Shown here piece by piece: positions 19,419 to 55,932 of a DNA stretch of 64,000 nt (position 1 is its first letter; every line of letters starts with the position of its first letter). The stretch lies in IMG/VR virus record IMGVR_UViG_3300020421_000004; one strand, given 5' to 3'. A model generated the notes under the pieces. That model worked only from the letters and a program-made list of their open reading frames with translations. It was not told where the DNA came from and did not search any database. This DNA comes from an uncultured virus (IMG/VR IMGVR_UViG_3300020421_000004). Its lineage: Duplodnaviria; Heunggongvirae; Uroviricota; Caudoviricetes. Made by a program: the position numbers and the translations under genes.

Positions 19419-20180
19419 TTACCAACAATTACTGAGTTTGTTCATTATATCATTGTAATCAAAACTATACGATGCTCTTGCGGTAGTCCATCCTTCACCA
19501 TTTACTAATCCGATGGGTGCCATTCTTGTCGCCTCAGAGACGTCCGTATCGCAACCACTATTATCGGGTCCGAAAGGTTCGTCGCTGACGTATATGCTTA
19601 CGGTTCTATGATCGACAACACTGTCGTTCATTCCCAACATATAATAGCAGCCATTAGTGACTCTACATTCCGGCACGCTTGCACTGGTGTGGAAAACCCA
19701 TAGTGAGTCTTCGTTCCAGACTTCGTTCATGCGGAACGAGAATGTCATTGCTGCTGACATCATTAATTGTTCATCAGTATAGTTTGGTGGTGGTGTCCAT
19801 AGCCCATAACTTCGGGTCCGAGTGCTTGCTTCGACGAATCTGTCGTCTGCTGCATAGCCTTCATGTTCCTTCCATTCTTGGGGGCTAACTAAGGTTTTAT
19901 CCACAGTCGTTCCATTTGGTAAGTTTATTCTAACATCCAAAAGGAGACAAGTGTCTATTATACCATAGTCATTTGTTGTGTTATTAGAAAGATAGCAACT
20001 TACGTCGTATTTGAAATACAGCATATTGCCGTCTTCTTCTACTTCGTTTTCTGCACCTGTATTTGTTACGTATCCTATTGGCAGCAACATCATTAAGATA
20101 ATTGCCGATATAAAATATGCATTAAAATATCTGTGTCCTGTTACTTTCTTTCTTATTGTATTAATTTTTTCAAAAATCAT
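19419..20180 (-). CDS. membrane-anchored hypothetical protein (start moved out of the tRNA)
   Basis: N-terminal hydrophobic helix; TAATAG-AT-ATG at 20180. Confidence 0.75.
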   Translation of the reverse strand: MIFEKINTIRKKVTGHRYFNAYFISAIILMMLLPIGYVTNTGAENEVEEDGNMLYFKYDVSCYLSNNTTNDYGIIDTCLLLDVRINLPNGTTVDKTLVSPQEWKEHEGYAADDRFVEASTRTRSYGLWTPPPNYTDEQLMMSAAMTFSFRMNEVWNEDSLWVFHTSASVPECRVTNGCYYMLGMNDSVVDHRTVSIYVSDEPFGPDNSGCDTDVSEATRMAPIGLVNGEGWTTARASYSFDYNDIMNKLSNCW

Positions 20181-20192
20181 ATCTATTAATGG

Positions 20193-20269
20193 TGGCGGGC
20201 CTAGCAGGGTTCGAACCTGCGACATTCCGGTTAAGAGCCGGACGCTCTACCTGACTAAGCCATAGGCCC
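20193..20269 (-). tRNA. tRNA-Lys(CUU) with encoded CCA
   Basis: Acceptor GGGCCUA/UAGGCCC, anticodon arm UCCGG-CUCUUAA-CCGGA, T-loop GGUUCGAAC, G-CCA end. Confidence 0.97.
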
Positions 20270-23696: not shown

Positions 23697-24281
23697 TTGA
23701 TGAAACTGTACGAAGTCACGATGACCTTCTCTATAGAAGCCATGCATGAAGAAAGCGCCGATAATAAATTAGACTCATTTCTTTCTGCCTTAGACCAGAA
23801 AAAGAATGATAAAATAGACTTAGTAGAATTAGGAGAACTAGTTTCTGTTGATGATGAACCAAAAGACTCCAAAGAGGAAGAGCCGACTAAGAAGAAAACA
23901 CCAGATTTGGTTATGCCTGAAGAGGATGACTGGGAAGATGACTGGGAAGAACTTGATTGGGATTCACTAGACGAAGACGAACCTGAAGACGAACCTGAAG
24001 AAGAACCTGAAGAAGAACCTGAAGAAGATGACGATGATGGAGAAGCAGAAGTACCCGCACCCCCTGCGGAAGATGAGGAAGTCGCCGATGTTGAAGATAC
24101 AACTACCGATACTGACGTGGGAGACGATACCGAAGGCGACGAAGAAGAGTCTGCCGATACTGAGGTCGACGATAACCCTGAAACCGAATCGGAAGAATCA
24201 GATGACGAAGACTGGGATGAAGACTCTGATGAAGCCTACGATGACGATGAAGACTGGGATGACATACCTTGGGAGGATTGA
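23697..24281 (+). CDS. highly acidic low-complexity protein
   Basis: D/E-rich with EPEE repeats and spaced Trp. Confidence 0.8.
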   Translation: MMKLYEVTMTFSIEAMHEESADNKLDSFLSALDQKKNDKIDLVELGELVSVDDEPKDSKEEEPTKKKTPDLVMPEEDDWEDDWEELDWDSLDEDEPEDEPEEEPEEEPEEDDDDGEAEVPAPPAEDEEVADVEDTTTDTDVGDDTEGDEEESADTEVDDNPETESEESDDEDWDEDSDEAYDDDEDWDDIPWED

Positions 24282-24285
24282 TTAA

Positions 24286-24525
24286 ATGCGCTTTGAGTGG
24301 AAATATGCACCAAAGCACATCAAATTGACCCCAACTCAGGCTAAAAGAGAACTAAAAGCAATAAATGTCTCTCTAGAAGAGATACCGTTAATCAAATATT
24401 CAGATGCTGCTATCACCAACCTAGTAGAACAAGGTGAAGAGATTGAAGTTAATGACGTAATTAAGATAATAAGAAATTCTAAAGTCGGTGGCGAAGTGCC
24501 ATACTATAGAAGAGTAATATACTGA
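24286..24525 (+). CDS. rpo5: RNA polymerase subunit Rpo5 (RpoH), archaeal type
   Basis: PKH..L, PLIKYSDAAI, VIKIIRNS..GG...YYRRV; 79 aa, assembly domain only. Confidence 0.93.
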   Translation: MRFEWKYAPKHIKLTPTQAKRELKAINVSLEEIPLIKYSDAAITNLVEQGEEIEVNDVIKIIRNSKVGGEVPYYRRVIY

Positions 24526-24530
24526 TTAAT

Positions 24531-24959
24531 ATGGTAGTCTATAATTGTTATACTGATGCCTCTACTATAGAGAGTAGTATAGAGTATAGTTCAGGTCTAT
24601 CTGCTATACTAGTAAATATAACGGATAACAGGTTAATGCTGTCTATGGGTAGGACTAACGATGTTGATAATTGTACGGTTGCAGAACTGTTTGCTATAAG
24701 GCTAGGTTTGTTTCTATCTAAGTCGACTGTGAAAGAAGGAGATCTTCTTAGAATCTGTTCTGATAGTCTATCCGCAATAGAGCATCTTGAAGACGCTGTC
24801 GAAACCAATAACGAAGACGTTGGAGAGATTAAACATTTCATACAAAGAATACTAGAGACATATCCGTGTGATGTTGAATTCCAGTGGGTTAGAGGTCATT
24901 CCGATCATCCAATGAATGACATGGCTGATTACATTGCCTACCGTCATGCGCAGGGTTAG
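24531..24959 (+). CDS. rnhA: ribonuclease HI
   Basis: YTDAS, AELFAI, SDS, WVRGHS..NDMAD. Confidence 0.93.
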   Translation: MVVYNCYTDASTIESSIEYSSGLSAILVNITDNRLMLSMGRTNDVDNCTVAELFAIRLGLFLSKSTVKEGDLLRICSDSLSAIEHLEDAVETNNEDVGEIKHFIQRILETYPCDVEFQWVRGHSDHPMNDMADYIAYRHAQG

Positions 24960-24978
24960 GCTTATTGCTTAATGCACG

Positions 24979-25713
24979 TTGGCGCTTAACATGGTCGACT
25001 TTGCGAAGAGAGCAAAAGATAGGGCACGTATCAACGAAAGGAATGCTACATTAAACTCAAGTAGAGTCAATTTTAGACAGAATTATATCAGGCGCAATAA
25101 TATACATCATTTCTTGTTGGGTGGAAAAGGTGTATCATTTGGTGCGCCCTTTGACGGTGTTGGTTTACCATCACATAACGTCATAATGTGCATGGTCAAT
25201 GATGCTGGCGAACTACCAATGGCAGTAGTCAACATTGGTTACAAGCAGAATAATACATTTCCTAAGACACTAGATGTTTCTCAGTTGAATAATATTCAAA
25301 TTAGAGGTGATGAAATAGTAATTACTATGCCTAAAGACGAAGAAGGTATAGCAAACGCAACAGGAATGTACTATGGATTGGATTCTGCCTTCACACAACA
25401 CGGTAAAATATTTTCTGCAGTACCATTGAGAGTATTGGTATCTTATCATATTAGCAGCAATACCACATCAAATGCTTTCAGCGTCAAATCAAAGTATGGT
25501 AGAACTAAACTAATCAAAGAAAGTATGACGAATGAGTCAGAATTTACCAAAGAATTCAGGGTTGGCGCCAATGGTGTGGTCAATCTTGGCGAATTAACTC
25601 AAGCATTAGTCAAAATCCCAGATGTTGCGGAACTAGACCCAGAAACAGGATTGGTAATGTATCCTCAGTATCTGATTACCGATAGAGTTACTATCAAGTT
25701 AATTAGAACGTGA
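24979..25713 (+). CDS. hypothetical protein in the RNA polymerase operon
   Basis: ORF between rnhA and rpo1. Confidence 0.8.
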   Translation: MALNMVDFAKRAKDRARINERNATLNSSRVNFRQNYIRRNNIHHFLLGGKGVSFGAPFDGVGLPSHNVIMCMVNDAGELPMAVVNIGYKQNNTFPKTLDVSQLNNIQIRGDEIVITMPKDEEGIANATGMYYGLDSAFTQHGKIFSAVPLRVLVSYHISSNTTSNAFSVKSKYGRTKLIKESMTNESEFTKEFRVGANGVVNLGELTQALVKIPDVAELDPETGLVMYPQYLITDRVTIKLIRT

Positions 25714-25717
25714 GAAT

Positions 25718-28700
25718 ATGGAAGAGCCTGAAGCGGTTGGGATACGGTCTTTTATTTGGTTTATCAAACCAGAAGACATCTATTCAGAAGAAGTCGAATT
25801 ACCTTCTACCAAAGAAGAGGGTGCGACATTCGTAGGTGTAAGAGACTTCATCGATTTCGATTTAAACAACGGTAGGCTGAAACACAAATGGGTGCCTAGA
25901 TGGAAGACTGAAGCAATAAGATATCTAACGACGCACGAAGATGCAGCAGGTTTACGAGCAGCATCAGACGTCTACTACCTAGTTACAATCAAAACAGAAG
26001 AAGATATTGTTGACAAGTCTGAAACATACCCAAAAATGATTCCTGAGGGGTGTGATGGAATGATATTAGAAGTACCAATAAAGGGGAAACTAATGAAGGG
26101 TGACCCAAGTCCTGATTTACCTATTTCATTTTATACAAACTACAAAAACGACCGTATTGACCTAAAAGAAGCCGGAGAAATAGGCGGAGTCAATATGGAA
26201 ATAATGTCACCAGAAGAGATAATAAAAATGTCAGTGGTCGAAGTTATCACTGGTGAGGCACTTAGAGAAGATACGGATCAAATAACACCTGTTATTGGTG
26301 GAACAATGGATCCTAGAATGGGTTCTTTGGCTAAAGATTCTGATTGCCCAACTTGCTACTTACCATTTGACCCATCGACCAACGACTCTACCAAAAGTTG
26401 TTCGGGGCATTTTGGCCATATCTCACTACCAGAACCTATACCTAACATACTTTTTCTAGGAGAAACGAAAAGAAAAGGAGATACCTCTAAGCCTTTGCTA
26501 GACGCATTAAATAAGACCTGTCATAGTTGCAGTAGAGTTATGTTACCTAACGATTTATTAGAAAGTCTAAGACCTAGAATACTTGAGGAATTTACGCTAG
26601 GTGGTAAAAACATAGCATCGAGAAGAAGAGTTAGAGCAATAATGAGTAAATTTTTCAATAATGTTGATAAGACTGGAAGAAACTGCCCACATTGTTCTGC
26701 AATAACACCAAAAATTACTTTCTACTTTAACTCTGGAGAGTTTCAATATGATACTAAAAGAGAAGATGGTGTAGATTTACTTAGTTACAGGGCAGTTCGA
26801 GACATCTTTAGCGACATCCCTGACGGCGATTGTTATTTTCTAGGGATAAATCCTGTAACATCTAGACCTGAAAATATGTTTTTTGAAGTCTTACCAGTCA
26901 TACCAAATACATCTCGGCCAATAAAGCAAAGAAGTGACGGCAGAACAGATGTAGATGATTTAACTAAACTCTACGGTGCTGTGGTTAACGATGCCAATAA
27001 GTTGCTCACAATCAAAAACTCAGGACGAGCGGTAAGGAGTGGACGATATGCTAGGAAAATGCTTTTGTTTTCGGTATCTAGATTAATTGACAATAGTAAT
27101 CAAACAATAGGTTCTGGAGGCAGTAAGCAGACTTTTACCTACGGTGCAGGGGTTCAACTAGAATCCTTAAAGGGGGTTTTGAATAGGCTAGAAGGTAAAA
27201 AAGGTAGACTTAGGAATAATCTGCAGTCTAAATATGTAAACAACGTAGGTTACTCAGCAATAAGCCCAGATCCAAATTTAGCAATAGACGAAGTCGGTGT
27301 ACCAATGGCCATGTTATTGGGTGACGATGGCATAACGTATCCTGTAACAGTCACTAACGAAAACATAGTTCGAGTTAAACAGTATATACAAAACACCATT
27401 GATGACGTACACCCAAAAGCCAAGCGTTTGTTCAATCATATCAACGAACAAGGTGGTGATGTTTTAGAACGCAGTTCAGCAGAACATCTCACTCATGTTA
27501 TGGATGGCTTGAAACCAGGAATGGTAGTAAAAAGGGAATTGATGGATGGCGATATTTGCTTATTCAATCGAGCACCGTCTTTACATAGACAATCAATAAT
27601 GGCATTCAGAATAAGAATTGTGCCAACAAAAAGCCTTAGTATGAACCCAACAGTTTGTATTCCCTTCAACGCAGACTACGATGGAGATGCAATGAAAGCA
27701 CACTTTGTTCAATCTGAAGCAGCAAAGCAAGAAGCAATCAAATTGATGTCATTAACAAAGAACATCATTCATTCTAGGTACGGGATGCTAACAGTTGCTA
27801 CCGACCAAGACCAAACTTCTGGCTTGTATCTATTAACTTACACCGACAAAGCCAAAGCAAACACTTGGAATAGTGGCACAGGATTTGGATTCAATGCAGA
27901 AGGGCTACCGTATGTCTCTAAGCAAACTGCAATTGAATGTTATTCGACTGTATTTAGTGAAATAAGAGACGGTAAAGAAGGCAAAACTTACCGCACGATG
28001 GATTCATTACCAGAATCTGACGCCGCGACACCTGATGGACCTGGGTATACTGGCAGAGCATTATTTAATCACCTATTTACAATACTGGACGCAGAGTATG
28101 TTTCTGCTAGTTTTCCTGGTGACACACCGTTGACTGAGGTACTTGAAGACGGCTCTGTTGCTGTTAAGCGAGAAAACGGCAAAGCCATCAGAGAACAGGT
28201 AGTCATTAGGAGTGGTAAACTAGTTTCTGGTACACTTGAGAAGTCAGCATTTGGCGAAGGAGGTGCATCTATTGCTCCATCTTTCATTTACCATGAGGGC
28301 TATGAAGCAGGACAAGAGAAGTTAGTAGAATTTATAGAACTGGCTACTAGACTCGGATTTGCTGCTCACAAAGTTGTCGGCTATACAATGGGAACTGCTG
28401 ATGTTTCCGCAGTTCCGGTACAACAAGATATAGATAGGCTCTACAGTGATTGTGCAAAAAAGATACTAAAAATAGACCAAGCGTTTGCTAATGGACAACT
28501 GAAACAGTATGTTGAAAACCACACACCAGAAAAAGCAATAGAAGCATTAGCAGATCCATTGTCATACATTGAAGATCAGATACTTACATTTACAGACACC
28601 TTTGAGAAAAAGATGCTAAACAAAATAGAAGACTATCAAGGTAGCGGAAATGCCATGCAGATTGCTGTCAGGTCAAAAGCAAGAGGCAAACCGATGAATA

Positions 28701-30406
28701 TCCAACAAATGGCCGGTGCTTTCGGCTTAGTTAGGCTGGCAGGGCTGAGAGTAACATCAGGTGTTCAACCAAGAAGAGTCTTACCACACTACCCAAAAGG
28801 CAGTCTTGAGCCAAAACACCGTGGCTTTGTTAGAGGGAATTACTCAAAAGGTATGGAACCAGATGAGTACTTTATGACTTCTATTGCAGGAAGAAGGTCA
28901 ACAGTAGAGTCTGCTCAAGGAAATATTGCTAAATCTGGCTACCTAGAGCGTAAAATGATTAAGGCTTTAGAGTCCTGTGTAGTTAATCAACGTAGACAAG
29001 TCGTCAATTTACGTACCAAAAGAGTCATTTCTCCAATAGTAGGCGACGATGGGTTGTCTCCATATCACATTAGAGGTAACACAGCATCTACTAATGAGCG
29101 AGGTTATACTATTACGCTTCAACCGTTCTTCTACGACCATGCTTGTAAACATGGTTTGACTTTAGAAGATGACTGCCTACACTGTGCTAAAGGCTCTGAT
29201 ATTGCTACGTTCGCTAGAAATATAGACAAAATAGTTTCAAATATGACACAAAATGCAGTTCTTAACAAACTCAGAGTCAGAGAGATGGGTAAAACCGACG
29301 TGAAAAACTTAGCAAAGCGACTCAACACATACTATGAAGACAGCCTTTGTCGAATAGGCGAAGCAATAGGGGCTACAGCAGGGGCAGATATTGGTGAACC
29401 GGCTACTCAGGCTGCGCTTAGAACGTTCCATTTCGCTGGGAAAACATCTGTTCAAGGTTCTATTGATAGGTTAAGACAAATTTTGGAATACAGTCCCTCT
29501 AACAATAAGTCGCCTATGACGAAATTGTATATGCAAGAAGGTTCTACAGAAGCAGAAGCAACAAGAGTTCAGGCTTTACTAGCAGAAGTCAAAGGTAAAC
29601 AGATAATCAAATTGATATCCTACGACCTAGAAAAGAAATTATTGTTTGTTAAGTTTGACTTTGAGGCAATGGGAACATACCAAATTTCCCCAGACATTGC
29701 TTTGAATCAAATAAAGACTGCGCTAAGTTCTGGTAGTAGCAGCGGGTTGTTCAAGTTTAACATACTTCAAGGTAGAATAGCACCAGAACAAGCATTCGTC
29801 GTACAAATAATGCCGGTTGGCTATAAAATAGCAGAAGGTAGAGAAAATTACGTCAGTGATGCAGCACTATTGTACGCTAAAGAATTGATTTTTGGTTCAA
29901 ATTTCAATGGTGTTGCAGGTGTTACCAGTATAGAACTGTCACAAAATGAAGAAAGTAGATGGGTACTAACGATGAAATCAGCAGAAAGTAAATTACTCGA
30001 CACAGTTGCAGATACTTTTGCCGGAATGGTGGACCTAAGTATGCTAGAAACTAATAACCATCAGTGGGTAGAAAAGAATTTTGGGTTAGAAGCAGCGATA
30101 GGCAACTTATACGAAGAGTTAGATTTCCAAATGAATTTAACTACTAAGAGTATAGGAGACTATGATAATAGATATATACGTACTATAGTAGATTGTATGG
30201 GAGAATATGGGTATATCAAATCTCTAGCACCTACTGGTTTGGGCGGCAATGACAACCCTAGTATATTGGGTGGAATATCTATACAAGGAATAAAAGAACA
30301 AATTATTGGTGGTGCTGCAATGGGTAATGAAGACCCAATTAGAGGTGTCACTGAATCCATTGTGGTCGGTGCAATGCCTACAATCGGTGACTTCACTCCT
30401 GAGTAG
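25718..30406 (+). CDS. rpo1: DNA-directed RNA polymerase largest subunit, fused A'+A''
   Basis: MDPRMG, CSGHFGH, GKKGRLRNNL, NRAPSLH, NADYDGD, bridge helix SGYLERKM, trigger loop GEPATQAALRTFHFAG. Confidence 0.97.
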   Translation: MEEPEAVGIRSFIWFIKPEDIYSEEVELPSTKEEGATFVGVRDFIDFDLNNGRLKHKWVPRWKTEAIRYLTTHEDAAGLRAASDVYYLVTIKTEEDIVDKSETYPKMIPEGCDGMILEVPIKGKLMKGDPSPDLPISFYTNYKNDRIDLKEAGEIGGVNMEIMSPEEIIKMSVVEVITGEALREDTDQITPVIGGTMDPRMGSLAKDSDCPTCYLPFDPSTNDSTKSCSGHFGHISLPEPIPNILFLGETKRKGDTSKPLLDALNKTCHSCSRVMLPNDLLESLRPRILEEFTLGGKNIASRRRVRAIMSKFFNNVDKTGRNCPHCSAITPKITFYFNSGEFQYDTKREDGVDLLSYRAVRDIFSDIPDGDCYFLGINPVTSRPENMFFEVLPVIPNTSRPIKQRSDGRTDVDDLTKLYGAVVNDANKLLTIKNSGRAVRSGRYARKMLLFSVSRLIDNSNQTIGSGGSKQTFTYGAGVQLESLKGVLNRLEGKKGRLRNNLQSKYVNNVGYSAISPDPNLAIDEVGVPMAMLLGDDGITYPVTVTNENIVRVKQYIQNTIDDVHPKAKRLFNHINEQGGDVLERSSAEHLTHVMDGLKPGMVVKRELMDGDICLFNRAPSLHRQSIMAFRIRIVPTKSLSMNPTVCIPFNADYDGDAMKAHFVQSEAAKQEAIKLMSLTKNIIHSRYGMLTVATDQDQTSGLYLLTYTDKAKANTWNSGTGFGFNAEGLPYVSKQTAIECYSTVFSEIRDGKEGKTYRTMDSLPESDAATPDGPGYTGRALFNHLFTILDAEYVSASFPGDTPLTEVLEDGSVAVKRENGKAIREQVVIRSGKLVSGTLEKSAFGEGGASIAPSFIYHEGYEAGQEKLVEFIELATRLGFAAHKVVGYTMGTADVSAVPVQQDIDRLYSDCAKKILKIDQAFANGQLKQYVENHTPEKAIEALADPLSYIEDQILTFTDTFEKKMLNKIEDYQGSGNAMQIAVRSKARGKPMNIQQMAGAFGLVRLAGLRVTSGVQPRRVLPHYPKGSLEPKHRGFVRGNYSKGMEPDEYFMTSIAGRRSTVESAQGNIAKSGYLERKMIKALESCVVNQRRQVVNLRTKRVISPIVGDDGLSPYHIRGNTASTNERGYTITLQPFFYDHACKHGLTLEDDCLHCAKGSDIATFARNIDKIVSNMTQNAVLNKLRVREMGKTDVKNLAKRLNTYYEDSLCRIGEAIGATAGADIGEPATQAALRTFHFAGKTSVQGSIDRLRQILEYSPSNNKSPMTKLYMQEGSTEAEATRVQALLAEVKGKQIIKLISYDLEKKLLFVKFDFEAMGTYQISPDIALNQIKTALSSGSSSGLFKFNILQGRIAPEQAFVVQIMPVGYKIAEGRENYVSDAALLYAKELIFGSNFNGVAGVTSIELSQNEESRWVLTMKSAESKLLDTVADTFAGMVDLSMLETNNHQWVEKNFGLEAAIGNLYEELDFQMNLTTKSIGDYDNRYIRTIVDCMGEYGYIKSLAPTGLGGNDNPSILGGISIQGIKEQIIGGAAMGNEDPIRGVTESIVVGAMPTIGDFTPE

Positions 30407-30713
30407 ACTGCCAATACTTAGCAGCCGCACGATAGAAAACGTCTTCTGATGCTATTGGACCCAATTCACGGTACATATACCACATATTAGTTTTCAAAGA
30501 TTTTAGAAAATCTTTTTCGTCATCTATTTCGAAGTTCTTTACCAACGCTTTGTAGTAAATTTCTTTTCTATCACGGTAAGTACAAACAAGACAGCCTCTA
30601 GTTGAAGAGTATCTGTAAATACTTTGTCGATCTAAGTCTTTGACGACTTTATAGTGGTTTCCGCAAATACAGCATAACTTCCATGCGATAGCATTTTCAG
30701 CCAAAGTAATCAT
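30393..30713 (-). CDS. hypothetical Cys-motif protein
   Basis: CxxC pairs; coupled to the polB stop. Confidence 0.6.
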   Translation of the reverse strand: MITLAENAIAWKLCCICGNHYKVVKDLDRQSIYRYSSTRGCLVCTYRDRKEIYYKALVKNFEIDDEKDFLKSLKTNMWYMYRELGPIASEDVFYRAAAKYWQSTQE

Positions 30714-33423
30714 CCACCGTAAACTTACGGTCAGGAACACGAAGGTCATCCAACGACATTCCCATACCATACATTATGTGGTCTAATTTACCGACAACAA
30801 ACTTTTCGATAATTAACTCCACATCAATTTCGTAGTCAGATATTTGCTCAAGGTCATGGAAAGAAACATAGCCACCTTCTGGAATCCACGTAGGCCCATC
30901 TTTGACAAAAGTGGTATAAAATGAATCACCTTTGTCAAGTGTGTCGTATTCTTCATTAGCCAAAACTATGTTATGCCAAGCAGCACCACGAGCATCTCCA
31001 GATAAACTAGAATAGCAAGCATCATCGCCATCAGAGTCAACAGAAGTGTTGTCATTAGTAGCACCATCAGAATAATGCCATGACACATTTTTGAGAGCAA
31101 GTTGTATCTTTTCTTCGGTATCTTTGCTACTCGCTACTTGTCGCATGGCTTTTCGATTTGGCAACCATTTACCCAATCTAGCCCTAGATATCAAATCCGT
31201 AGTTTTGACATTACCGTCTCGTATGTTTGCAATATACTCTAGCAAAGACTCCTTAACTTCCTCAGGTGTATGGTCATCCCATAACATATGTAGTGCCTTT
31301 AGTTGAATACCACGTCCTACAGGCGACGTATTTGCGTGCTTGGCCTCCAACCCCTGTATCTTCATTCTGTCCTCTACAGCCTCGTTAGAGATACTAAAAC
31401 CGACCTCTGGCATCCAAACTACCCTTCCACCGTAGCGATTCCGCCTCGGTAAGTAGAATCTATCCATCAGCATCTCACAATCGACAATCATAGCCTTTGA
31501 CTGTAACTTAGTTTGCATCATCTCTGTCAAATGTGTACCAAGTTCCTGTGCCTTTTGTACACACTCTTCGGTTGATAGGTCATCGCCCATCTTTACGAAG
31601 ATAGAATCAGTATGACCATAAATTACAGGATAACCTAGTTTGTTAGACTCAACCATAATAGCGTTCAAAGAATCCCTACCAAACTTAGTGATTGTTCTTG
31701 CAATATCTATATCGCCCCAAGAGTAGCCTTTGAAGGCCATCAAGCCATAAAATGTGGCTCTTAACCGCTTCACAGTCTTCTGTGCATCATCCCACTTCCT
31801 AAACTCGTTAGAGGTCTTACCATGCTCTGCACCGGCTTCATCTCTCTTAGCCTTGTATTCGTCTCTTAACTCATCTAACTCCAACACAGAAGCGGGCAGA
31901 ATACCAATTGGGTTACGTCTAAACCTGCAACCGTCACCAATGATATCATCATCCTGTTCATCTCCTTTTGCTACTTTTGTCTCAAACGAACAATTAGCGG
32001 CAATCATGCACGATGGATACAGACCTGCGAAATCTAGGATTGCTACGTTCTTATGCAAACCAACAGAGTCTAAATCTTCCGGGTCTAAAACAATAGCACC
32101 TTGCAATGCCATGTCATCTGTTCCCTTACCAGTCTTCGCCGCATAATAACCGCTTCTTTGTTTGAAACTAGCCTTTCGCATGAAATACACTCTAGCGTAA
32201 GACGAACCATAGAAGGTACTACTGATTTGACATTTAGCCAATTGTTGTAATGCCATCTGTCCATTAACTAGGTTATACTTATCTTCTATCTCTACCATTA
32301 GTAATACATCTCTAAAGTTATAGTATAGATAGTCCTCTAGGAATAGGTGATAATCACCATCATAGAAATCTGGTCTGAAATCAGTTTTACCCCTGCCAAA
32401 TAATTTCTGTCCAACTATGTCTAACTTGTTAGATGGAAGGTTCGTTGACTTAGAATCACGATAGACACGCTCGAATAACCTGTCTAAAGATATAACCGTA
32501 CGACCCCTAATAGGTTGTCTTGTCCAGTTGTATCTATCCTTAGTCCACCTCGACGGCTCATCAACATGCCTATTCTTACCTAGTGAAGATGGCGACAGTT
32601 TGTCAGCGCCAATACCTAATGACTCTAACCGCGCATACAATGTAGGTAAGTCATAAAAGCCCATACCCCATGCTAATAATATATCTGGGTCTATTAATTC
32701 TAACCACTTTACAAAGTCTTGCATCATAGTATACTCATTAGCGAAATGGCGTATCTCTACGTCTATACCGTCAAACTTCATCATTTTTACAGGTGTTATT
32801 TGTGAGAAACTATGTAAGTGCTCATGTGCTAATGGATGCTGTGTCCATATCGTGTATATGTTAGTATAGTTATCGTAACAACCTATTACATTGATACTTT
32901 GCCTATCAGCCCATATAGCGCCTTTCTGTCTCATTTCTTTTGGCCCACTACTTTTACGATTGTATTGCAAAGCCTCTAAATCTATAAACACTTTTCTAGG
33001 CTCATATTCAGGTAACTCATTCATGTTATCTATGAGATACCTATCTTCATATGGAACATCCGCTTCGTAAGTACCACTAACCTCTCGTGCAAATTTCTTC
33101 AATCGTGATGGAGAATCAAAAGTAACCTTCCATAGTGGGTCGCCGTTTGCAGCAACTGCATCTGTGACCTTCTCGTGACTATCCACATCGTAGCGGTCTA
33201 CTAGGAAAGCATCCAAAGAATGTCTATCAAGTCTTCTTTCTTTCAGCCCTTTGCTTTTATCTGCTCTGACCTTAGTATGATTTGGATGAACAAATAAGTA
33301 CGGCTTAAAATCGGTAACTACCTTTTCTTTACGCATCCACTGTCCTAATTCGTTCTGTTCTCTCCAACGTAGGTTAAGTTCATTTGATGGCCAACCGTCG
33401 TTAATTCCTGTACTAATAATCAT
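30697..33423 (-). CDS. polB: family B DNA polymerase
   Basis: Exonuclease DLE / YDL / YNFRD; DFAGLYPS; KRLRATFYG; YGHTDS. Confidence 0.96.
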   Translation of the reverse strand: MIISTGINDGWPSNELNLRWREQNELGQWMRKEKVVTDFKPYLFVHPNHTKVRADKSKGLKERRLDRHSLDAFLVDRYDVDSHEKVTDAVAANGDPLWKVTFDSPSRLKKFAREVSGTYEADVPYEDRYLIDNMNELPEYEPRKVFIDLEALQYNRKSSGPKEMRQKGAIWADRQSINVIGCYDNYTNIYTIWTQHPLAHEHLHSFSQITPVKMMKFDGIDVEIRHFANEYTMMQDFVKWLELIDPDILLAWGMGFYDLPTLYARLESLGIGADKLSPSSLGKNRHVDEPSRWTKDRYNWTRQPIRGRTVISLDRLFERVYRDSKSTNLPSNKLDIVGQKLFGRGKTDFRPDFYDGDYHLFLEDYLYYNFRDVLLMVEIEDKYNLVNGQMALQQLAKCQISSTFYGSSYARVYFMRKASFKQRSGYYAAKTGKGTDDMALQGAIVLDPEDLDSVGLHKNVAILDFAGLYPSCMIAANCSFETKVAKGDEQDDDIIGDGCRFRRNPIGILPASVLELDELRDEYKAKRDEAGAEHGKTSNEFRKWDDAQKTVKRLRATFYGLMAFKGYSWGDIDIARTITKFGRDSLNAIMVESNKLGYPVIYGHTDSIFVKMGDDLSTEECVQKAQELGTHLTEMMQTKLQSKAMIVDCEMLMDRFYLPRRNRYGGRVVWMPEVGFSISNEAVEDRMKIQGLEAKHANTSPVGRGIQLKALHMLWDDHTPEEVKESLLEYIANIRDGNVKTTDLISRARLGKWLPNRKAMRQVASSKDTEEKIQLALKNVSWHYSDGATNDNTSVDSDGDDACYSSLSGDARGAAWHNIVLANEEYDTLDKGDSFYTTFVKDGPTWIPEGGYVSFHDLEQISDYEIDVELIIEKFVVGKLDHIMYGMGMSLDDLRVPDRKFTVDDYFG

Positions 33424-33872
33424 TTTAATGCACCTACTATGTCGAACCTAGAGCATTGTGAAAAACAATATATCACTGATTGCTCTGGATTGAATCTGAA
33501 ATGATTGGAATCGGAATCCTTGCCTCTTTTAGCACAAGAAGGACAGCGACCAGTATAATATCCGCTACCATCTGGCCCACGAATATTCTCTATTCTCTCT
33601 AAAACCAAACCAACAGTCAGTCCATCAGTCTCTTTGTCCCATTCGTAATCTATAGTTTTCTGACGATATACCTCTGTTTCTGGCTGTGTTCCTAGTTCAG
33701 AGGCTCTTAGGAGGTTCTTGAAGGCTAGGATGGCTCCAGACGTCCTAAAATAGACAAAACCGTCACGAACGTCTTGATTCACTAGTGCGTGTTCCTTTGA
33801 TGCCGTGACTTTTGTATTACGCAGCAATTTAAGGTAGTCTGCAACTACCATTTTCGGCACTTTCATCGTCAT
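33420..33872 (-). CDS. zinc-ribbon protein (primase Zn-domain-like)
   Basis: RCPSC...DSDSNHF...YCFSQC; coupled to polB. Confidence 0.6.
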   Translation of the reverse strand: MTMKVPKMVVADYLKLLRNTKVTASKEHALVNQDVRDGFVYFRTSGAILAFKNLLRASELGTQPETEVYRQKTIDYEWDKETDGLTVGLVLERIENIRGPDGSGYYTGRCPSCAKRGKDSDSNHFRFNPEQSVIYCFSQCSRFDIVGALK

Positions 33873-37750: not shown

Positions 37751-38497
37751 TCATAATATTCCTCCCCAAGAGAATTCTTTTTCTTCGCCGTCTAACTCGT
37801 ACACTCCTTTGTATAGGCGTTCGTTCTTTAGGATACCGCTAATAGTGGCGGGAGACCAACTAAGTTTACCCTTCTTTGTTTTGATTCCACTTTGGATTAG
37901 ATGTTCACAGATTTCAGATAGGCTTAGAGCCTTCTCTTTACACTGGAAAATAATTTTCACAATCTCTGCTTCTGCTTTATTGATAACTAATATGCCTTTA
38001 TCTGTATCTTTACCTGTGATTTTGAACTTAGAATCATACCCATATGGCGGTGGCCCTAGTTTCCTACCTTGATGCCTAACTGCATCTAAGCCCATCTTCG
38101 TTCTTTCACGTGTCATCTCTACTTCTAATTGCGCTAATGAACTCATTAATTGGAAAATAAACCTACCCATAGGAGTAACAGTATCGATATCTATGTCTAT
38201 TGCTGCGAAGTTTTTGTTACGAGAGTTGAGATCCGCTGCCCATGTAGCAGCGTTTGCAGCACTACGGTGGAATCGGTCTAGTTTGTAAGCAATAGTGATA
38301 TCCCAAGTATCTATATCTTCCATCATTTTCTCGTATCCTTCACGTTCCGTCTTCATACCAGAACCAACGTCAGAGTACACTTCTACGACTTCGTAGTCTT
38401 TGAATGCACAATACTCCCTACACTTACGTATCTGCTGTTCGACAGAACCTTCTGATTGATGGTCAGTAGACACTCTAGAATAGATAACTGCTTTCAT
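37751..38497 (-). CDS. serine recombinase (resolvase + recombinase domain)
   Basis: YSRVST, DVGSG, LDRFHR, ERTKMGL, PPYGY. Confidence 0.92.
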   Translation of the reverse strand: MKAVIYSRVSTDHQSEGSVEQQIRKCREYCAFKDYEVVEVYSDVGSGMKTEREGYEKMMEDIDTWDITIAYKLDRFHRSAANAATWAADLNSRNKNFAAIDIDIDTVTPMGRFIFQLMSSLAQLEVEMTRERTKMGLDAVRHQGRKLGPPPYGYDSKFKITGKDTDKGILVINKAEAEIVKIIFQCKEKALSLSEICEHLIQSGIKTKKGKLSWSPATISGILKNERLYKGVYELDGEEKEFSWGGIL

Positions 38498-39909: not shown

Positions 39910-40461
39910 TTACCAAGCAGTTTGCATGGTATTTCTAGCGTATTCATCTGGGTCTTGTATTATCGGTAACAATGCTGAGTACCATTCTGGAGGATTAGAT
40001 TTACCTTTATTCCATATACCCATATAGGACTTATCATATAGATAGTATAACCTATACTTAGTTACTATAGGTAGATTATCAAAGTTATAGAAAGACCTAC
40101 ACTTCTGGTCAGCACTTATAGCGGCTACAAATGGTGTCATTTCTCCGTTTACGGGTAGGTTAGGGCGATTATCTCTGACCCATTCAATAACGTCTTGACA
40201 CTTATGCCTACGTCCGTAGCGGTTGGTATATTCCATACATAGTGCAAGACCATGTTGTATTAGCCAATCGTGATTCTCTCTGCAGGTTCTAGCCCATACT
40301 GTAGACGGGTGATTGTAATGTGTTTTCTTATACGGTGCTACACCGTCAGGATATGCAGCGCATAGCATTTGTGCGGTTTCTAGGGGCATTTTCACAATGT
40401 GCTTATCTAGTTGCATCACTGCTGCTTCCACAGGATCGGTTGAAAGAACAAAGATATTCAT
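39910..40461 (-). CDS. pyrimidine-dimer DNA glycosylase-like (DenV superfamily) protein
   Basis: MNIFVL..DP..AA...DKHIVKM..E.AQML, HYNHPSTVW, EYTNRYGRRH. Confidence 0.85.
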   Translation of the reverse strand: MNIFVLSTDPVEAAVMQLDKHIVKMPLETAQMLCAAYPDGVAPYKKTHYNHPSTVWARTCRENHDWLIQHGLALCMEYTNRYGRRHKCQDVIEWVRDNRPNLPVNGEMTPFVAAISADQKCRSFYNFDNLPIVTKYRLYYLYDKSYMGIWNKGKSNPPEWYSALLPIIQDPDEYARNTMQTAW

Positions 40462-40522
40462 TGTAGTAGCCTCCCTATGAATAAGACCCACTTAGGCATA
40501 TATTGTGCAACAGCGTCAGATA

Positions 40523-42373: not shown

Positions 42374-43375
42374 ATGGGTAAAGATTGGGGAGACTGGAGA
42401 AGGCACGATATATCGCCATCCAGGTTGAAAACCTTTTCAGATTGTCCTAGAAAGTACTTTTACCAGTACGTTCAGAAGATAAAGACACCTAACAGACTCT
42501 TTTTCCTTAGTGGTAACGTTTTCGACGAAATCGCTATGGAAGAGTTTAGAGCAGATCCTAGTCAAGATGTAGAACCAATCGTTGAGTTGGCTGGAGATAT
42601 CTTACTTATTAGAATCAAAGAAGCACAGAAAGATGAAGACAAACCATTGTTAAATCTAGATGGTAGTCCTGTCACTGATGCACAAGGCTTACAAGAAGTC
42701 ATGGACTTTAGAACATGGACTAGAGGCTTCCTTTTAGCATGGCAAAATGGTGAAGATTACTTAGGTAACAAGTTCCAAATGCCACCTATTGCAGATACAC
42801 AAGTACAATGTATATGGCCTATACAGATTGATGGACAAACTATTAGGTTGAATGGATTTGCTGATATAACACATACAGATGGTTCTGTTACTGATTTGAA
42901 GATGGCTTCTTATTGGAAGTCTTCTCGTTGGACATCTGGCCGTATAATGTCAGAATTACAATGGGTTCCTTATTCACAGGCTCTAAATACCAACAAATTC
43001 AGATATATCGTGACAGATAAGCACAAGTCTGGTTGGAAAGATAAGCGTAAAGCAGACCCACCAACAGTTAGAACATTTGACGTAGACGTGTACCCACAAG
43101 ATGTAGACAATTTTAAGGATTTGGTAACATCTTTTGTACGTACTACAGACTTCCTAAACGACCATTTGGACGGTGTATTCCCTCCAAAGCCACAATACAA
43201 AGGAGATGAAACAGCATTTGGTGCTGAACCATCTAAAAAGAAGTTTAACGAATACAGTCTACCACAGGTTAATTTCTGTAGGAAACTATGCGACTTCAAA
43301 GACGTCTGTTTCAAAGAATGCTTTGGTGGTACATTTAGGTCAGAAAGTACTCCAGATGACATGGAAGGTGCATGA
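42374..43375 (+). CDS. PD-(D/E)XK exonuclease, Cas4/RecB-like
   Basis: SPSRL...CPRKY, GFAD, DLK, Q..PY, C-terminal CxxxCxxxxxC. Confidence 0.88.
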   Translation: MGKDWGDWRRHDISPSRLKTFSDCPRKYFYQYVQKIKTPNRLFFLSGNVFDEIAMEEFRADPSQDVEPIVELAGDILLIRIKEAQKDEDKPLLNLDGSPVTDAQGLQEVMDFRTWTRGFLLAWQNGEDYLGNKFQMPPIADTQVQCIWPIQIDGQTIRLNGFADITHTDGSVTDLKMASYWKSSRWTSGRIMSELQWVPYSQALNTNKFRYIVTDKHKSGWKDKRKADPPTVRTFDVDVYPQDVDNFKDLVTSFVRTTDFLNDHLDGVFPPKPQYKGDETAFGAEPSKKKFNEYSLPQVNFCRKLCDFKDVCFKECFGGTFRSESTPDDMEGA

Positions 43376-43852: not shown

Positions 43853-44437
43853 ATGGCCACCGAAGAAGAGATTAGAACCCATATAGAAGCCTTATGTGCT
43901 GATAAAGATTGGGTCAAATCTTTCAATTCTAAGTTAAAAAGGGTCAAATCTGGAGAACACAAAGGCTGTTTAGAGTGGCAGGGTGGACTAGATAAGGGCG
44001 GCTACGGACGTTTCCATGTCAAGAAACACCACGAAACCGGAACAGGTAGAAACTTCTTTGCACATAGGATGTCTTACATGATTAATAGAGGATACATTAC
44101 ACCGGATGAATTGATACTACATCAGTGTCATAACCGTCTCTGTTGTAATCCATCACATCACAAATTAGGCGATCATATGGACAATATGGATGATTTACAT
44201 GATTCCAAAAGAATTGCTGGAGAGAACAATCCTAGAAGCAAACTAACAGAAGATGAGGTGTGGGATATCCTATCTCTATACTATGATGGTATAGAACCTA
44301 TATATGAGCCTCTATCTATAGGAGATATAGTAAAGTTATATGAAGATGTAGGTATTAAGAGAGGAACCGTATCTGATATAGTATATGGTAGAACGTGGCC
44401 GTACGTCTACAATGAGTTTTTTGAGGAGGAAGACTAA
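43853..44437 (+). CDS. HNH endonuclease with C-terminal DNA-binding helix
   Basis: CLEWQG..GYG, AHRMSY, LHQCHNRLCCNPSH, GENNPRSKLTE. Confidence 0.9.
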   Translation: MATEEEIRTHIEALCADKDWVKSFNSKLKRVKSGEHKGCLEWQGGLDKGGYGRFHVKKHHETGTGRNFFAHRMSYMINRGYITPDELILHQCHNRLCCNPSHHKLGDHMDNMDDLHDSKRIAGENNPRSKLTEDEVWDILSLYYDGIEPIYEPLSIGDIVKLYEDVGIKRGTVSDIVYGRTWPYVYNEFFEEED

Positions 44438-48335: not shown

Positions 48336-48641
48336 TCACTCTACATATTTGTAGGCATACTTTAGAACTTGTGTCATAGATATTTTCTTCTTTCCACCAC
48401 ACATTTTCTTCCAATCCGGATCTTCTCCGCAGAAAATAACTTGTCCACCTTTGTAGGTTTTCTTACCGACTTTCAGTGAGTCTCCTTCTCCGCCTTGTAT
48501 GCCGAGTGCATGAATCCCGTTCTTTCCATGCCATAGATTCTTTAGTATGTCTTTCCTCTTTACTGAGGTCTTTCCCATCAGATTCGCTAATGGGCCAGTT
48601 ACTTTTACTTTTACATCTAGGGGCTTTACTTTCTTTGCCAT
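48336..48641 (-). CDS. SWIB/MDM2-domain protein
   Basis: PLANLMG...R..I.K.LW..I...GIQ...IFC..D...K......ISM..V.K. Confidence 0.7.
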   Translation of the reverse strand: MAKKVKPLDVKVKVTGPLANLMGKTSVKRKDILKNLWHGKNGIHALGIQGGEGDSLKVGKKTYKGGQVIFCGEDPDWKKMCGGKKKISMTQVLKYAYKYVE

Positions 48642-52502: not shown

Positions 52503-53243
52503 TTACTGCATTGCATTAGGTTGTTGGTACATACCTTGTTGCTGTGGATATTGCTGATATTGGTTATAGTTTGGTGCAGGTGGTAAACCTAGTGAGCCTC
52601 TAAGTAGAGTCGAACCGAAACTACCTAACGCACCACTAATACCTTGTGGTTGTTGCTGTTGCATCATTTGTTGTTGATACATTTGTTGCTGGAACATCTG
52701 TTGCTGCTGATCCATACCAGCCTGCATACCGCCCATTTGCATACCATATTTATGTTGATTGATTAAACCAATTGCTTCAGCGTCTGCTGCATTGATTCTT
52801 TGTTGTCCAGCATCCACAGAGTACATCTTACCTAAGATGTTGTCTATATTCTCTTGAGTTATTGTTGAATAACCTAATTCTGCTGCCGTAGCAGCGTTTA
52901 CTGATGCTGCTATTGCCTCCGAATTGAACCATATATACAATTCTCTCTTCATAATGGTGGATATCAATTCTGCTAGTCCAGATAAGAATTCTGGATTCCC
53001 TACGAAGAATAAATCTACTTCGTTTGGATGACGAGCCATCAGATGATACATTAGTTCTATTTCTTCTGTGTTGACTCCTCCACCAGTCATCTGGTCTAGC
53101 ATTCCCATGCCCATTCCAGTCAGTCCCGAGTTATTCGCTGCTTGAGCGAACATATTCATTTGATCTTGCGAAATACCGCCTCCGACACCTGGCGGTACTA
53201 ACGCCGCTGCGGAGGTTGTGCTGCTTCTTCCGAACAATCCCAT
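52503..53243 (-). CDS. Gln/Met/Gly-rich protein
   Basis: Low-complexity termini. Confidence 0.8.
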   Translation of the reverse strand: MGLFGRSSTTSAAALVPPGVGGGISQDQMNMFAQAANNSGLTGMGMGMLDQMTGGGVNTEEIELMYHLMARHPNEVDLFFVGNPEFLSGLAELISTIMKRELYIWFNSEAIAASVNAATAAELGYSTITQENIDNILGKMYSVDAGQQRINAADAEAIGLINQHKYGMQMGGMQAGMDQQQQMFQQQMYQQQMMQQQQPQGISGALGSFGSTLLRGSLGLPPAPNYNQYQQYPQQQGMYQQPNAMQ

Positions 53244-53285
53244 GTTATAGCCACCCTAGTCCTTTGTATTGAACGTTTCTCATAA

Positions 53286-54029
53286 TTATCGCCTCTGCAT
53301 TTCTTCTAAAACCTTGTAATATTCCGCCATGTCCATCGTTTTCATCGTATTATGGCGTGGTGCAGTGTTTTTCAGTACCCTATTGTCAAAGACTAACATA
53401 GTTATGTCATTCTCCTTTGTAATTGGGTTTTTATAATGAACAAGTTGTATGCCGTCTTTCATAGCCTCTTGAATAATAGGTGTCCATTTAACGATTAAAG
53501 GGTGCTCTGGTTCTTCTGCCTGTCTAACAATAGGTACGAATGCAATTCCTTTCTTTGCCATCGAAGAAAAGAATCCTGGGTCTGACTCTCTTTCTTCTTG
53601 TTCTATCCACTCCATTAGATTATGATACAGCATCATATGTTGCGGGCAATATGTTCCAGACATTTTCCTGCCTTTCTGTGGTAATACTCCCGTTGTTGGT
53701 CTGAATGGTTCTATTTCAAGTGTGATTGGATCTCTAAAATATTGGTCAAATAAGTCACCATAGTCTGCTTTTATGCAATCTATACCGTCACAAACGCACT
53801 CATGTGGCTTGGTATGTCTATGCTTACCTCTAAGAAGTCTTTTTGGTGAAAATATGCTTCTTTTATTTGGCTTCAATGCTTTAATTGCAGCCTTGATATT
53901 TGCTCTTCTTGCCTTTCTTGGGTCAGGATTTGCAGACATTCTAAAGTCTACCTGTGCTACTACGTCGTTATATCCACCTGCATCTAGTGCAGGATTTTGC
54001 ATCATGTCTAATATTTCTCTGTTTGTCAT
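53286..54029 (-). CDS. hypothetical protein coupled to the GTPase
   Basis: ATGA overlap; CxC...CxxH. Confidence 0.75.
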   Translation of the reverse strand: MTNREILDMMQNPALDAGGYNDVVAQVDFRMSANPDPRKARRANIKAAIKALKPNKRSIFSPKRLLRGKHRHTKPHECVCDGIDCIKADYGDLFDQYFRDPITLEIEPFRPTTGVLPQKGRKMSGTYCPQHMMLYHNLMEWIEQEERESDPGFFSSMAKKGIAFVPIVRQAEEPEHPLIVKWTPIIQEAMKDGIQLVHYKNPITKENDITMLVFDNRVLKNTAPRHNTMKTMDMAEYYKVLEEMQRR

Positions 54030-54745
54030 ATTGATAGCCCCTTGATTAAAGCGTCCTGTACATTCCATCCGTATTTTGCACTAACCGCATCCATATATAC
54101 AGGAACATTCATGGCTTGTAAGCGGTAAAAGTCTTCTCTAAATACGTCGAATATTTGGTGACGGGCGATAAAACCCTTTTCCCATGTAGCGTGGTCAGCA
54201 TCTGTCATCCAATCGTCTGCTTTATTGGCAAGTACGACTACTCTTTTTGGATAGTATTTCTTTGCTCGCCACCAACCTCTCCAAGTGAGTCCTCTAGGAG
54301 TATTATTCTTATCGCTTAATGCTCTTACTAAATACCCTAGAGCAGTTTGATTATCTACATTATTAGTATCCATTAGGTGTCTATTATCTATTACTAATAC
54401 TACACTACTACAGTTACGGTTAATCATATCTCTCAACCATGTTGAATGGTACTCTATATGACCGCCCAAGTCTCTAGAAACAATTGTTCTTGCTAAACCA
54501 TCTGAACGTATTCGCTTCTTAGTTGCGTCAGGTAACTTATACCTGCCTAACCAGTCTTTACTATGATGAGTACGGTCTTTGTCGTATAGTTTTCTTATTT
54601 CGCCTCTAGTGGTTAATTGCCCATCAAGAGTCGTCTTACCACTATTACTTGCGCCAATAACACTTATCTCATAAGGAACTAATGTCAAAACGCCAGCCAT
54701 GACTCTCCATACGCCGTGTGCTAAGATGATTTCTGCTGAGCCCAT
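54026..54745 (-). CDS. Ras/Arf-superfamily small GTPase
   Basis: G1 GASNSGKT, G3 DLGGH, G4 NKAD, G5 SAK. Confidence 0.88.
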   Translation of the reverse strand: MGSAEIILAHGVWRVMAGVLTLVPYEISVIGASNSGKTTLDGQLTTRGEIRKLYDKDRTHHSKDWLGRYKLPDATKKRIRSDGLARTIVSRDLGGHIEYHSTWLRDMINRNCSSVVLVIDNRHLMDTNNVDNQTALGYLVRALSDKNNTPRGLTWRGWWRAKKYYPKRVVVLANKADDWMTDADHATWEKGFIARHQIFDVFREDFYRLQAMNVPVYMDAVSAKYGWNVQDALIKGLSI

Positions 54746-54749
54746 TCTA

Positions 54750-54983: not shown

Positions 54984-55055
54984 GCTGATGACACCATCCC
55001 GACCTCGTCATTCTCTCGCATTGTGTTCCCATATCTGTTATTGCTTGGCATTGTA

Positions 55056-55790: not shown

Positions 55791-55932
55791 TTCTTTTCCT
55801 CCTTAATCAATAATGTAAAGACGGTCAGTCTTATCGTTGCTAAATATAGCAACTCCAGATTCGTCTTGAACCATTAGAATATAACTTACGCCGGTTTCTT
55901 TCAGCGCCACTAGTGCAGCATTGACTTTAGTT

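Follow-up and report, generated by a model that had tools for sequence, protein, structure and literature searches.

A 64,000-nucleotide stretch of DNA from an uncultured virus (IMG/VR record IMGVR_UViG_3300020421_000004), referred to below in its full length as the window, carries an operon for two subunits of an archaeal-type multisubunit RNA polymerase, namely a largest subunit Rpo1 in which the A' and A'' parts are fused and the small subunit Rpo5, and no recognisable gene for the second-largest subunit, Rpo2. A two-barrel multisubunit polymerase requires a second-largest subunit, and since an enzyme built on Rpo1 would need the Rpo2 barrel and none appears to be encoded by the element, the partner should be the Rpo2 of the host. 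With moderate confidence we thus favour the reading that Rpo1 and Rpo5 assemble with host Rpo2 and host small subunits into a hybrid polymerase, of which we infer both the assembly and the purpose. The original prediction, made from the letters of the window alone, had placed the part running from Rpo5 to Rpo1 at 24286..30406, and these borders proved exact.

Rpo1 (1562 aa; 25718..30406, + strand) is the product of the last gene of a five-gene operon and contains, in order, the five Pfam domains Rpb1_1 (residues 154–502, E 7.8e-54, 183.6 bits), Rpb1_2 (505–678, E 7.1e-44, 150.4 bits), Rpb1_3 (682–896, E 4.3e-09, 36.9 bits), Rpb1_4 (952–1038, E 1.4e-12, 47.9 bits) and Rpb1_5 (1045–1511, E 7.6e-31, 108 bits), each of which exceeds the Pfam gathering score. 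The closest solved structures are archaeal Rpo1N chains (342 bits for just the A' part) together with yeast RPC1 and RPB1, and judged by sequence Rpo1 is an archaeal/eukaryote-type largest subunit of the Rpb1/Rpo1/beta' superfamily. Motifs were assigned in an alignment of 20 members of the Rpo1 family with identities of 33–78%. As can be seen there, both zinc sites of the clamp are invariant in 20 of 20 sequences (site 1, C210, C213, C228 and H231, 26345..26410, +; site 2, C268, C271, C323 and C326, 26519..26695, +). The catalytic NADYDGD motif at residues 651–657 (27668..27688, +) aligns with NADFDGD of Thermococcus A' and has its N, A, D, D, G and D invariant throughout; the motif is not exclusive to the family, and is found also in 9 of 139 non-family rows. 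The bridge helix region (residues ~1045–1085; 28850..28972, +), located at the start of Rpb1_5, aligns with residues 822–860 of Thermococcus A' and contains many invariant columns, and the trigger loop region (residues ~1214–1243; 29357..29446, +), as aligned to cellular A'', retains G1214, E1215, G1218, A1221, E1227, P1228, Q1231, L1234, R1235, F1237, H1238, G1241 and K1242 in all 20 sequences. The complete A'+A'' fusion that had been predicted, with its intact Asp triad, both clamp zinc sites, bridge helix and trigger loop, is therefore borne out by the five domains and by the invariance of the motifs.

Because these catalytic and structural motifs are invariant down to 33% identity, Rpo1 appears to have been kept as a working polymerase subunit and not as a relic. 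The same invariance bears on the idea that Rpo1 and Rpo5 act as a decoy or poison, soaking up host subunits and shutting off host transcription while being themselves unproductive. Such a role would account for the restriction of the encoded subunits to those that nucleate on the host core, and archaeal viruses are known to target the host RNA polymerase, as described for ATV ORF145/RIP in the accessible part of PMC5123050; a decoy, however, would not need an Asp triad, bridge helix and trigger loop that are invariant family-wide, and we consider this explanation very unlikely.

Two parts of Rpo1 are specific to the family. The first is an N-terminal domain (residues 1–150; 25718..26167, +) that precedes Rpb1_1, which starts at residue 154. 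The extra domain of ~150 aa noticed at the outset is conserved family-wide, with F12, W14, P60, A66, G78 and R80 invariant in 26 rows. Modelling gave a confident fold (predicted local distance difference test, pLDDT, 87.3) with no convincing counterpart among known folds: Foldseek returned no match in the PDB, and the top 50 of 48,161 chains compared by VIA-align are nearly all proteins with the ADP-ribosyltransferase (ART) fold, the best of them at Z 4.6 and a root-mean-square deviation of 3.4 over 96 residues, which is below the background quoted for the tool. The Glu at the expected ART strand varies between clades and is not conserved, and the resemblance of the model to ADP-ribosyltransferases is a weak lead. 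A query of the ESM Atlas with the domain gave no result, and stand-alone homologues were not found among shorter proteins, the four matches there all being Rpo1 fragments on short contigs. We also considered the domain as a cryptic second barrel or as a known RNA polymerase subunit and found no support for either (nil by Foldseek, and a weak ART-fold match only by VIA-align).

The second family-specific part is a CxH-x7-CxxC insert at the junction of A' and A'' (C1143, H1145, C1153 and C1156; 29144..29185, +), cellular A' aligning up to about residue 1119 of Rpo1 and cellular A'' clearly from about residue 1180. All four residues are invariant in 20 of 20 aligned sequences. The insert, likewise anticipated in the original prediction, is present in 25 of 25 family rows versus 0 of 60 archaeal, eukaryotic and giant-virus Rpo1/Rpb1 rows.

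The Rpo5/RpoH homologue (79 aa; 24286..24525, +) consists of the C-terminal (assembly) domain only. Its Pfam Rpb5_C match (E 2.5e-13, 50 bits against a cut-off of 23.5) spans residues 6–77 of 79, and it scores 52 bits against the NCBIfam RpoH equivalog, under the cut-off of 83. By these matches it is a divergent member of RpoH/Rpb5, in the short archaeal-style form that is devoid of the eukaryotic N-terminal domain. A hidden Markov model (HMM) of the family, built from six viral Rpo5 sequences, finds a syntenic Rpo5 in nine of nine family sources, these being the six training sources together with L007 (3e-09), L008 (7e-04) and the viral record G004 (E 1e-13), for which Pfam confirms the assignment. 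That Rpo5 always accompanies Rpo1 fits the co-divergence of a direct binding partner, as its homology to RpoH/Rpb5 would suggest, and a canonical multisubunit architecture.

The absence of Rpo2 from the window, also part of the original prediction, held in each sequence-based search that was made. Pfam detected no Rpb2 domain in 91 of the 94 non-overlapping open reading frames (ORFs) of at least 50 aa in the window (three small ORFs lie outside the scan), and tblastn with cellular archaeal RpoB gave nothing better than E 0.69 in the window, in G004 and in seven family loci. PF00562 is present in none of six whole viral records of the family, a count that includes G004 and does not include L001, and the control search was positive in 14 of 14 genomes. 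G004 (140,336 bp; CheckV 100% complete; IMG/VR class direct terminal repeats) is regarded as closed because of a 55-bp terminal overlap, and the only polymerase subunits recognised by Pfam among its 206 ORFs (128 of at least 90 aa and 78 of 45–89 aa) are Rpb1 and Rpb5_C. The one other very large ORF of the window (1380 aa; 58899..63041) was weighed as a possible hiding place for Rpo2 and rejected, as it has repeated matches to phage tail-spike and virion proteins and no Pfam match.

The enzyme had been predicted to be either autonomous or hybrid; the hybrid fits, and the autonomous alternative is left unsupported by a closed relative without recognisable Rpo2. An autonomous viral polymerase would have its cognate Rpo2 outside the 64-kb window or in a form too divergent for sequence recognition, and we hold this to be improbable. 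The window is partial, many large ORFs both there and in G004 have no family match, and recognition of the polymerase subunits of jumbo phages is known to be difficult. On the other hand, Rpo1 is itself readily recognised (E 1e-54), so a co-evolving Rpo2 should be recognisable as well, and the counts of PF00562, the RpoB searches and the survey of the closed genome all speak against one.

Several points nevertheless weigh against the hybrid polymerase that we favour. Three ORFs of G004 straddle the borders of sequence pieces and lie outside the Pfam scan, some of its large ORFs (for example those of 1118, 1439 and 1455 aa) are without any match, and a very divergent Rpo2 could escape both Pfam and tblastn. 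The window represents 64 kb of a genome of probably 100–140 kb, and an Rpo2 gene of this particular element could lie beyond the window. We know of no precedent for a virus that encodes the largest subunit only. A further point concerns the fit between the viral and the host subunits. The metagenome-assembled genome (MAG) G007 ('Methanobacteriota archaeon') holds the family locus L095 on one contig and on another a normal operon of rpoH-rpoB-rpoA' (1034 aa)-rpoA'' (526 aa), and host Rpo2 is therefore at hand there. The window Rpo1 is only 29–31% identical to A' and 24% identical to A'' of G007, and misses the NCBIfam equivalog cut-offs (509 bits versus 819 and 495 versus 1042.55 for A'; 115 versus 420.65 for A''), which the cellular proteins of G007, serving as control, pass (1187 versus 819; 427.5 versus 420.65). 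Given these low identities and scores far under the cut-offs, the compatibility of Rpo1 with host Rpo2 is not obvious from sequence comparison. The window Rpo5 is 29% identical to RpoH of G007 over 56 residues, and the thermosome subunit of the window is only 43–44% identical to that of G007. The assignment of marine group II archaea as hosts rests on the literature and on MAG bin names, and the binning of family contigs is unreliable because one of the bin names is bacterial.

The operon itself comprises, in order and with gaps of 4–19 nt, the genes for an acidic protein, Rpo5, RNase HI, a protein that we term X, and Rpo1, all head-to-tail on the + strand. The operon had thus been described correctly with respect to the short Rpo5, RNase HI and the acidic protein, and protein X is a further member of it. 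The acidic protein (194 aa; 23697..24281, +) is rich in D and E over its C-terminal two thirds and has no match in Pfam, PHROG or NCBIfam; its N-terminal ~45–100 residues are conserved in L007 and L008, where the protein occupies the same position. The RNase HI-like protein (142 aa; 24531..24959, +; Pfam RNase_H, E 2.5e-09) has a homologue just upstream of Rpo1 in all eight other family sources. Protein X (24979..25713, +) is encoded by a 244-aa ORF and is likely ~240 aa long, its homologues beginning at the fifth residue (24991). It has 24 homologues at 49–96% identity and distant syntenic ones in L001 and G004, and separates RNase H from Rpo1 in the window, L001, L003, L004, L006 and G004; L007, L008 and L095 are without it, RNase H there abutting Rpo1. 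AlphaFold2 predicts a beta-sandwich (pLDDT 74.7) for which fold searches gave no convincing match (Foldseek template-modelling score < 0.3; best VIA-align Z 5.5), and a role as cryptic second barrel or known RNA polymerase subunit was not supported by this fold either. Downstream, and convergent with Rpo1 both here and in all eight other sources, lies a gene for a family B DNA polymerase (PolB; 30697..33423, −; Pfam DNA_pol_B and exo1), the product of which is 27–37% identical to the PolBs that adjoin the other family Rpo1 genes. Across the family sources the genes keep the order Rpo5, RNase H, (X), Rpo1, with PolB convergent. Next to PolB follows a conserved 150-aa protein (33420..33872, −) with no family match, for which syntenic tblastn matches were obtained in seven of nine sequences (L001, L003, L004, L006, L007, L008 and L095) and none in L005 and G004. 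A complete TFB, with zinc ribbon and two TFIIB/cyclin repeats, is found beside PolB only in L001 (L001:18096-19028, −), L003, L004 and L006; none was found in the window by Pfam or by tblastn with the L001 protein, and none in closed G004. The presence of TFB in this one subclade indicates that the elements manipulate archaeal transcription initiation. Inspection of upstream regions for shared promoter motifs yielded nothing clear.

The constancy of RNase H (within the Rpo5–Rpo1 operon in nine of nine sources) and of PolB as convergent neighbour in all of them raises the question whether a hybrid enzyme would serve mainly in replication, by making R-loop transcripts which RNase HI would trim so that they prime PolB, much as in ColE1. 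We judge this unlikely. G004 encodes, besides PolB, a thermosome subunit and a resolvase, also MCM, two homologues of archaeo-eukaryotic primase and two RNase H genes, the second of which stands beside one of the primase genes, so that a conventional priming route exists; and the TFB of one subclade points rather to promoter-directed transcription.

The Rpo1 family is large and distinct. A search of 5.8 billion proteins assigned to it 108 of the 120 listed clusters, each with at least 666 bits; full-length rows are mostly 1535–1690 aa, and shorter rows are mostly on short contigs. Below the family the score falls to 409 bits, where the fused cellular RpoA proteins of Aigarchaeota, Nitrosopumilus and Bathyarchaeota (28% identity) begin. 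In an exhaustive HMMER search with the A' part, some dozen representatives of the family come first, and below them archaeal, eukaryotic and giant-virus proteins form a plateau at 30–37% identity. IMG/VR contains eight full-length members at 30–37% identity (L001–L008), and GTDB genomes contain at least one (L095). In a quick tree of the A' region (LG+G4; 85 rows, 842 columns) the family is one clade on a long stem, with a value of 100 in the Shimodaira–Hasegawa-like approximate likelihood-ratio test (SH-aLRT). A careful tree under LG+C20+F+G4 with posterior mean site frequencies (PMSF), made from 53 of the 85 rows and 839 columns, recovers the family at 100/100 with a stem of 0.88, and splits the remainder three ways into a Heimdall row, Eukarya plus giant viruses (100/99) and other Archaea (93/90), the last including a host-like clade around A' of G007 (99/98). 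Length was the sole basis for marking tree rows as 'arcLen' and 'unk', and several of these rows turned out to be eukaryote-like. One further long Rpo1 homologue, P0130 (1597 aa), falls in the host-like archaeal clade and is without an exact NAD[FY]DGD; it might be insertion-bearing or degenerate.

The family thus stands apart from the sampled Archaea, Eukarya and giant viruses, and falls within neither the giant viruses nor one of the cellular groups sampled. Its point of attachment in the Rpo1 tree is not secure. When the family is joined to the host-like archaeal clade under LG+G4, the best tree has a log-likelihood 30.5 above that of the quick free tree (approximately unbiased test, p-AU 0.81), and the careful LG+G4 search joins the family to the long Heimdall branch, a grouping that we read as long-branch attraction and do not accept. 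The family may be an ancient Rpo1 lineage or a fast-evolving capture from the host lineage; if the deep position is real, it would be an old lineage of Rpo1 and not a recent capture from a host.

With the hybrid polymerase as the preferred reading, the operon may be regarded as a replacement module for the host RNA polymerase. The fused Rpo1 would supply the catalytic Asp triad, the clamp, the bridge helix and the trigger loop, and the cognate Rpo5 would occupy the place on it that RpoH/Rpb5 has on cellular Rpo1. The two would then join Rpo2 (RpoB), the assembly subunits and the small subunits, all of them encoded by the host. The resulting enzyme would presumably serve the element, in transcription of its own genes and possibly in transcript-primed replication. 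It would differ from the host enzyme in clamp, jaw, cleft, N-terminal domain and junction zinc knuckle, in other words at the places that bind factors and downstream DNA. Candidate determinants of the difference are the N-terminal domain, the knuckle and protein X. We go one step further, to a proposal that is plausible though a little short of probable, in suggesting that widespread marine archaeal viruses or virus-like elements hijack the host polymerase by subunit swap, inserting their own Rpo1 and Rpo5 into its core and so supplying less than an entire polymerase but more than a factor; retargeting of the hybrid to genes of the element would then fall to the N-terminal domain and the zinc knuckle, together with a private TFB in some clades. 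If true, such a swap would add a third strategy to the two of 'use the host enzyme' and 'bring your own'. A hybrid enzyme would also amount to a novel means by which a mobile element controls transcription, and would offer a natural experiment for learning what regions of Rpo1 govern promoter use and the binding of factors in the archaeal/eukaryotic polymerase lineage. Archaeal RNA polymerase can be assembled from recombinant subunits.

The 6.1-kb stretch from Rpo5 to Rpo1 recurs in metagenomic data. At least part of it is contained in 20 of the 24 listed runs, and 14 runs contain at least half of its words; the positive runs come from 14 studies, and two of them may be the source itself. Three positive runs from three studies, with word shares of 0.62–0.63, are labelled as viral metagenomes, one of which (X7) yields a contig of 4605 nt that spans 25002..29603 and shows 99 differences. 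Among RNA-seq data, two oligo-dT runs of a single study have word shares of 0.36–0.42, and their contigs of 367–509 nt match the operon with 0–3 differences (25450..25899, for instance, with none); DNA carry-over is possible in these runs, and the operon pieces are weak evidence of transcription.

By gene set the window matches 'magrovirus group D', for which PolB, a thermosome, a resolvase, along with 'DNA-dependent RNA polymerase A', are listed (Philosof et al. 2017, PMC5434244), and the match extends to the marine source and to the lack of a recognised morphogenetic block. In the accessible portions of the sources, group D consists of elements of marine group II (Poseidoniales) archaea (PMC5434244, PMC10160649, PMC11706807) that are termed 'MCP-lacking' (MCP, major capsid protein; PMC11706807). 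They are described as having no structural genes and as richer in the cellular size fraction, for which a plasmid-like element has been suggested, the choice between virus and plasmid-like element being left open (Xu et al. 2023, PMC10160649). Within the window, neither Pfam nor PHROGs recognised a capsid, portal or terminase gene such as would mark a tailed archaeal virus (Caudoviricetes: HK97-fold capsid protein, portal and large terminase), and none was recognised in closed G004, the search covering sequence families only; a 482-aa ORF tried as capsid candidate gave no result in the ESM Atlas. 'Virus-encoded', as the operon had originally been called, is accordingly an overstatement. From its gene content the element appears to be non-cellular and virus-like, with its status as a virus unproven.

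A contig of cellular or chimeric origin, on which Rpo1 would be a divergent cellular paralogue, we regard as highly improbable. Archaeal MAGs include some of the family contigs and a bacterial MAG includes one, and the enrichment of group D in the cellular size fraction reported in the accessible part of PMC10160649 would agree with such an origin. The window, however, has no ribosomal or other housekeeping genes in its 64 kb, and encodes PolB, a resolvase, HNH and PD-(D/E)XK nucleases and virion-like proteins instead; a relative is closed at 140 kb, other relatives are deposited in IMG/VR, near-identical DNA occurs in the three viral-metagenome runs, and MAG G007 has separate cellular rpoA'/A'' genes.

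The rest of the window, with a G+C content of ~0.40 throughout, encodes an AAA ATPase (Pfam), a serine recombinase/resolvase (37751..38497, −), a pyrimidine-dimer DNA glycosylase (39910..40491, −), a PD-(D/E)XK nuclease (42374..43375, +), an HNH endonuclease (43853..44437, +) and a small SWIB-domain protein (48336..48641, −), several of these, the ATPase aside, being common to the window and G004. Its one tRNA, tRNA-Lys(CTT) (20193..20269, −), is overlapped in its 3' part by a program-called ORF (19419..20225). A module at 52503..57486 (−) comprises the thermosome subunit (55933..57486, −; Pfam) followed by four conserved proteins of 239–260 aa that are 31–52% identical to a syntenic four in G004; one of them (54026..54745) is P-loop GTPase-like (GTP_EFTU, 3.8e-05). 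The 1380-aa protein mentioned above (58899..63041, −) has 4–6 repeated stretches that match PHROG tail-spike and virion structural families with E down to 8.7e-50, a 251-aa ORF (63086..63841, −) matches a baseplate-wedge connector family weakly (no other tail-like match was obtained in the window), and syntenic ORFs of 611 and 1118 aa in G004 have similar weak tail/virion-type matches. G004 also encodes a 242-aa P-loop ATPase of the FtsK/HerA type (L087:18396-19121) with matches to PHROG 'terminase large subunit' (3e-19), to FtsK/SpoIIIE-like proteins (9e-06) and to Pfam AAA_22 and DUF87. Packaging ATPases of this type are typical of jelly-roll-capsid viruses, and the enzyme could explain why group D shows no HK97 capsid, portal or terminase. 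Further G004 products include a 2208-aa protein with guanylate kinase, Ham1 and DUF5824 domains (L087:11318-17941), a 934-aa protein with HAD phosphatase and NUDIX domains (L087:396-3197) and a 112-aa aspartyl protease of retroviral type.

The existence of the gene is already in print, as stated above for the 2017 gene set, and to that extent Rpo1 is a viral polymerase described before; the family forms a clade of its own and is not nested in giant viruses. In the accessible part of PMC5434244 the polymerase of group D receives one sentence, with no Rpo5, fusion, N-terminal domain, zinc insert, absence of Rpo2 or hybrid reading, and the term 'RNA polymerase' does not occur in the available text of PMC11706807 or PMC10160649. 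A published analysis of the group D polymerase gene was not found in the literature searches made. The present analysis adds that the polymerase is a partial one, that Rpo5 accompanies it universally, that some of its domains are specific to the family, and that the family is both large and separate. None of the ~150 sequenced archaeal virus genomes was found to encode a recognisable RNA polymerase (Sheppard et al. 2016, PMC5123050, as far as the text at hand goes), a rule to which group D elements are an exception, abundant and diverse in the ocean by the 108 listed clusters and by the DNA in runs of 14 studies.

Compared with other known systems, the Rpo1 family has partial counterparts. The giant viruses (Nucleocytoviricota) likewise encode fused Rpb1-type subunits, some with NADYDGD, but their rows group with eukaryotic Pol II-like rows, away from the separate Rpo1 clade, and giant viruses encode Rpb2 as well. 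The unsplit A'+A'' is shared with the fused rpoA of Nitrososphaeria, Aigarchaeota, Bathyarchaeia and Korarchaeota, which are the best cellular full-length matches (28% identity, ~400 bits); these cellular proteins are ~1260–1290 aa, have neither the N-terminal domain nor the CxH...CxxC insert, and are not sister to the family in our trees. The plant NRPD1 and NRPE1 of Pol IV and Pol V are alternative largest subunits that share subunits with another polymerase and so give rise to an enzyme with a new task. They are cellular paralogues with a second-largest subunit gene of their own, whereas the Rpo1 described here would come from a mobile element, and the comparison does not imply homology beyond the Rpb1 superfamily. 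The mReC tailed phages (Weinheimer and Aylward 2020, PMC7481178) and the jumbo phages, too, have large prokaryotic-virus genomes known from metagenomes, with polymerase genes of the multisubunit type. We considered identity with the mReC polymerases and rejected it: according to the part of that study available, mReC phages have beta and beta' and are sister to Bacteria. Both mReC and jumbo phages encode the two subunits and branch with or near Bacteria, whereas the Rpo1 family is of archaeal/eukaryote type and is without a beta/Rpo2 partner. If the subunit swap proposed above is true, it would be a natural parallel to the origin of plant Pol IV/V, and would bear on how specialised polymerases arise by exchange of the largest subunit.

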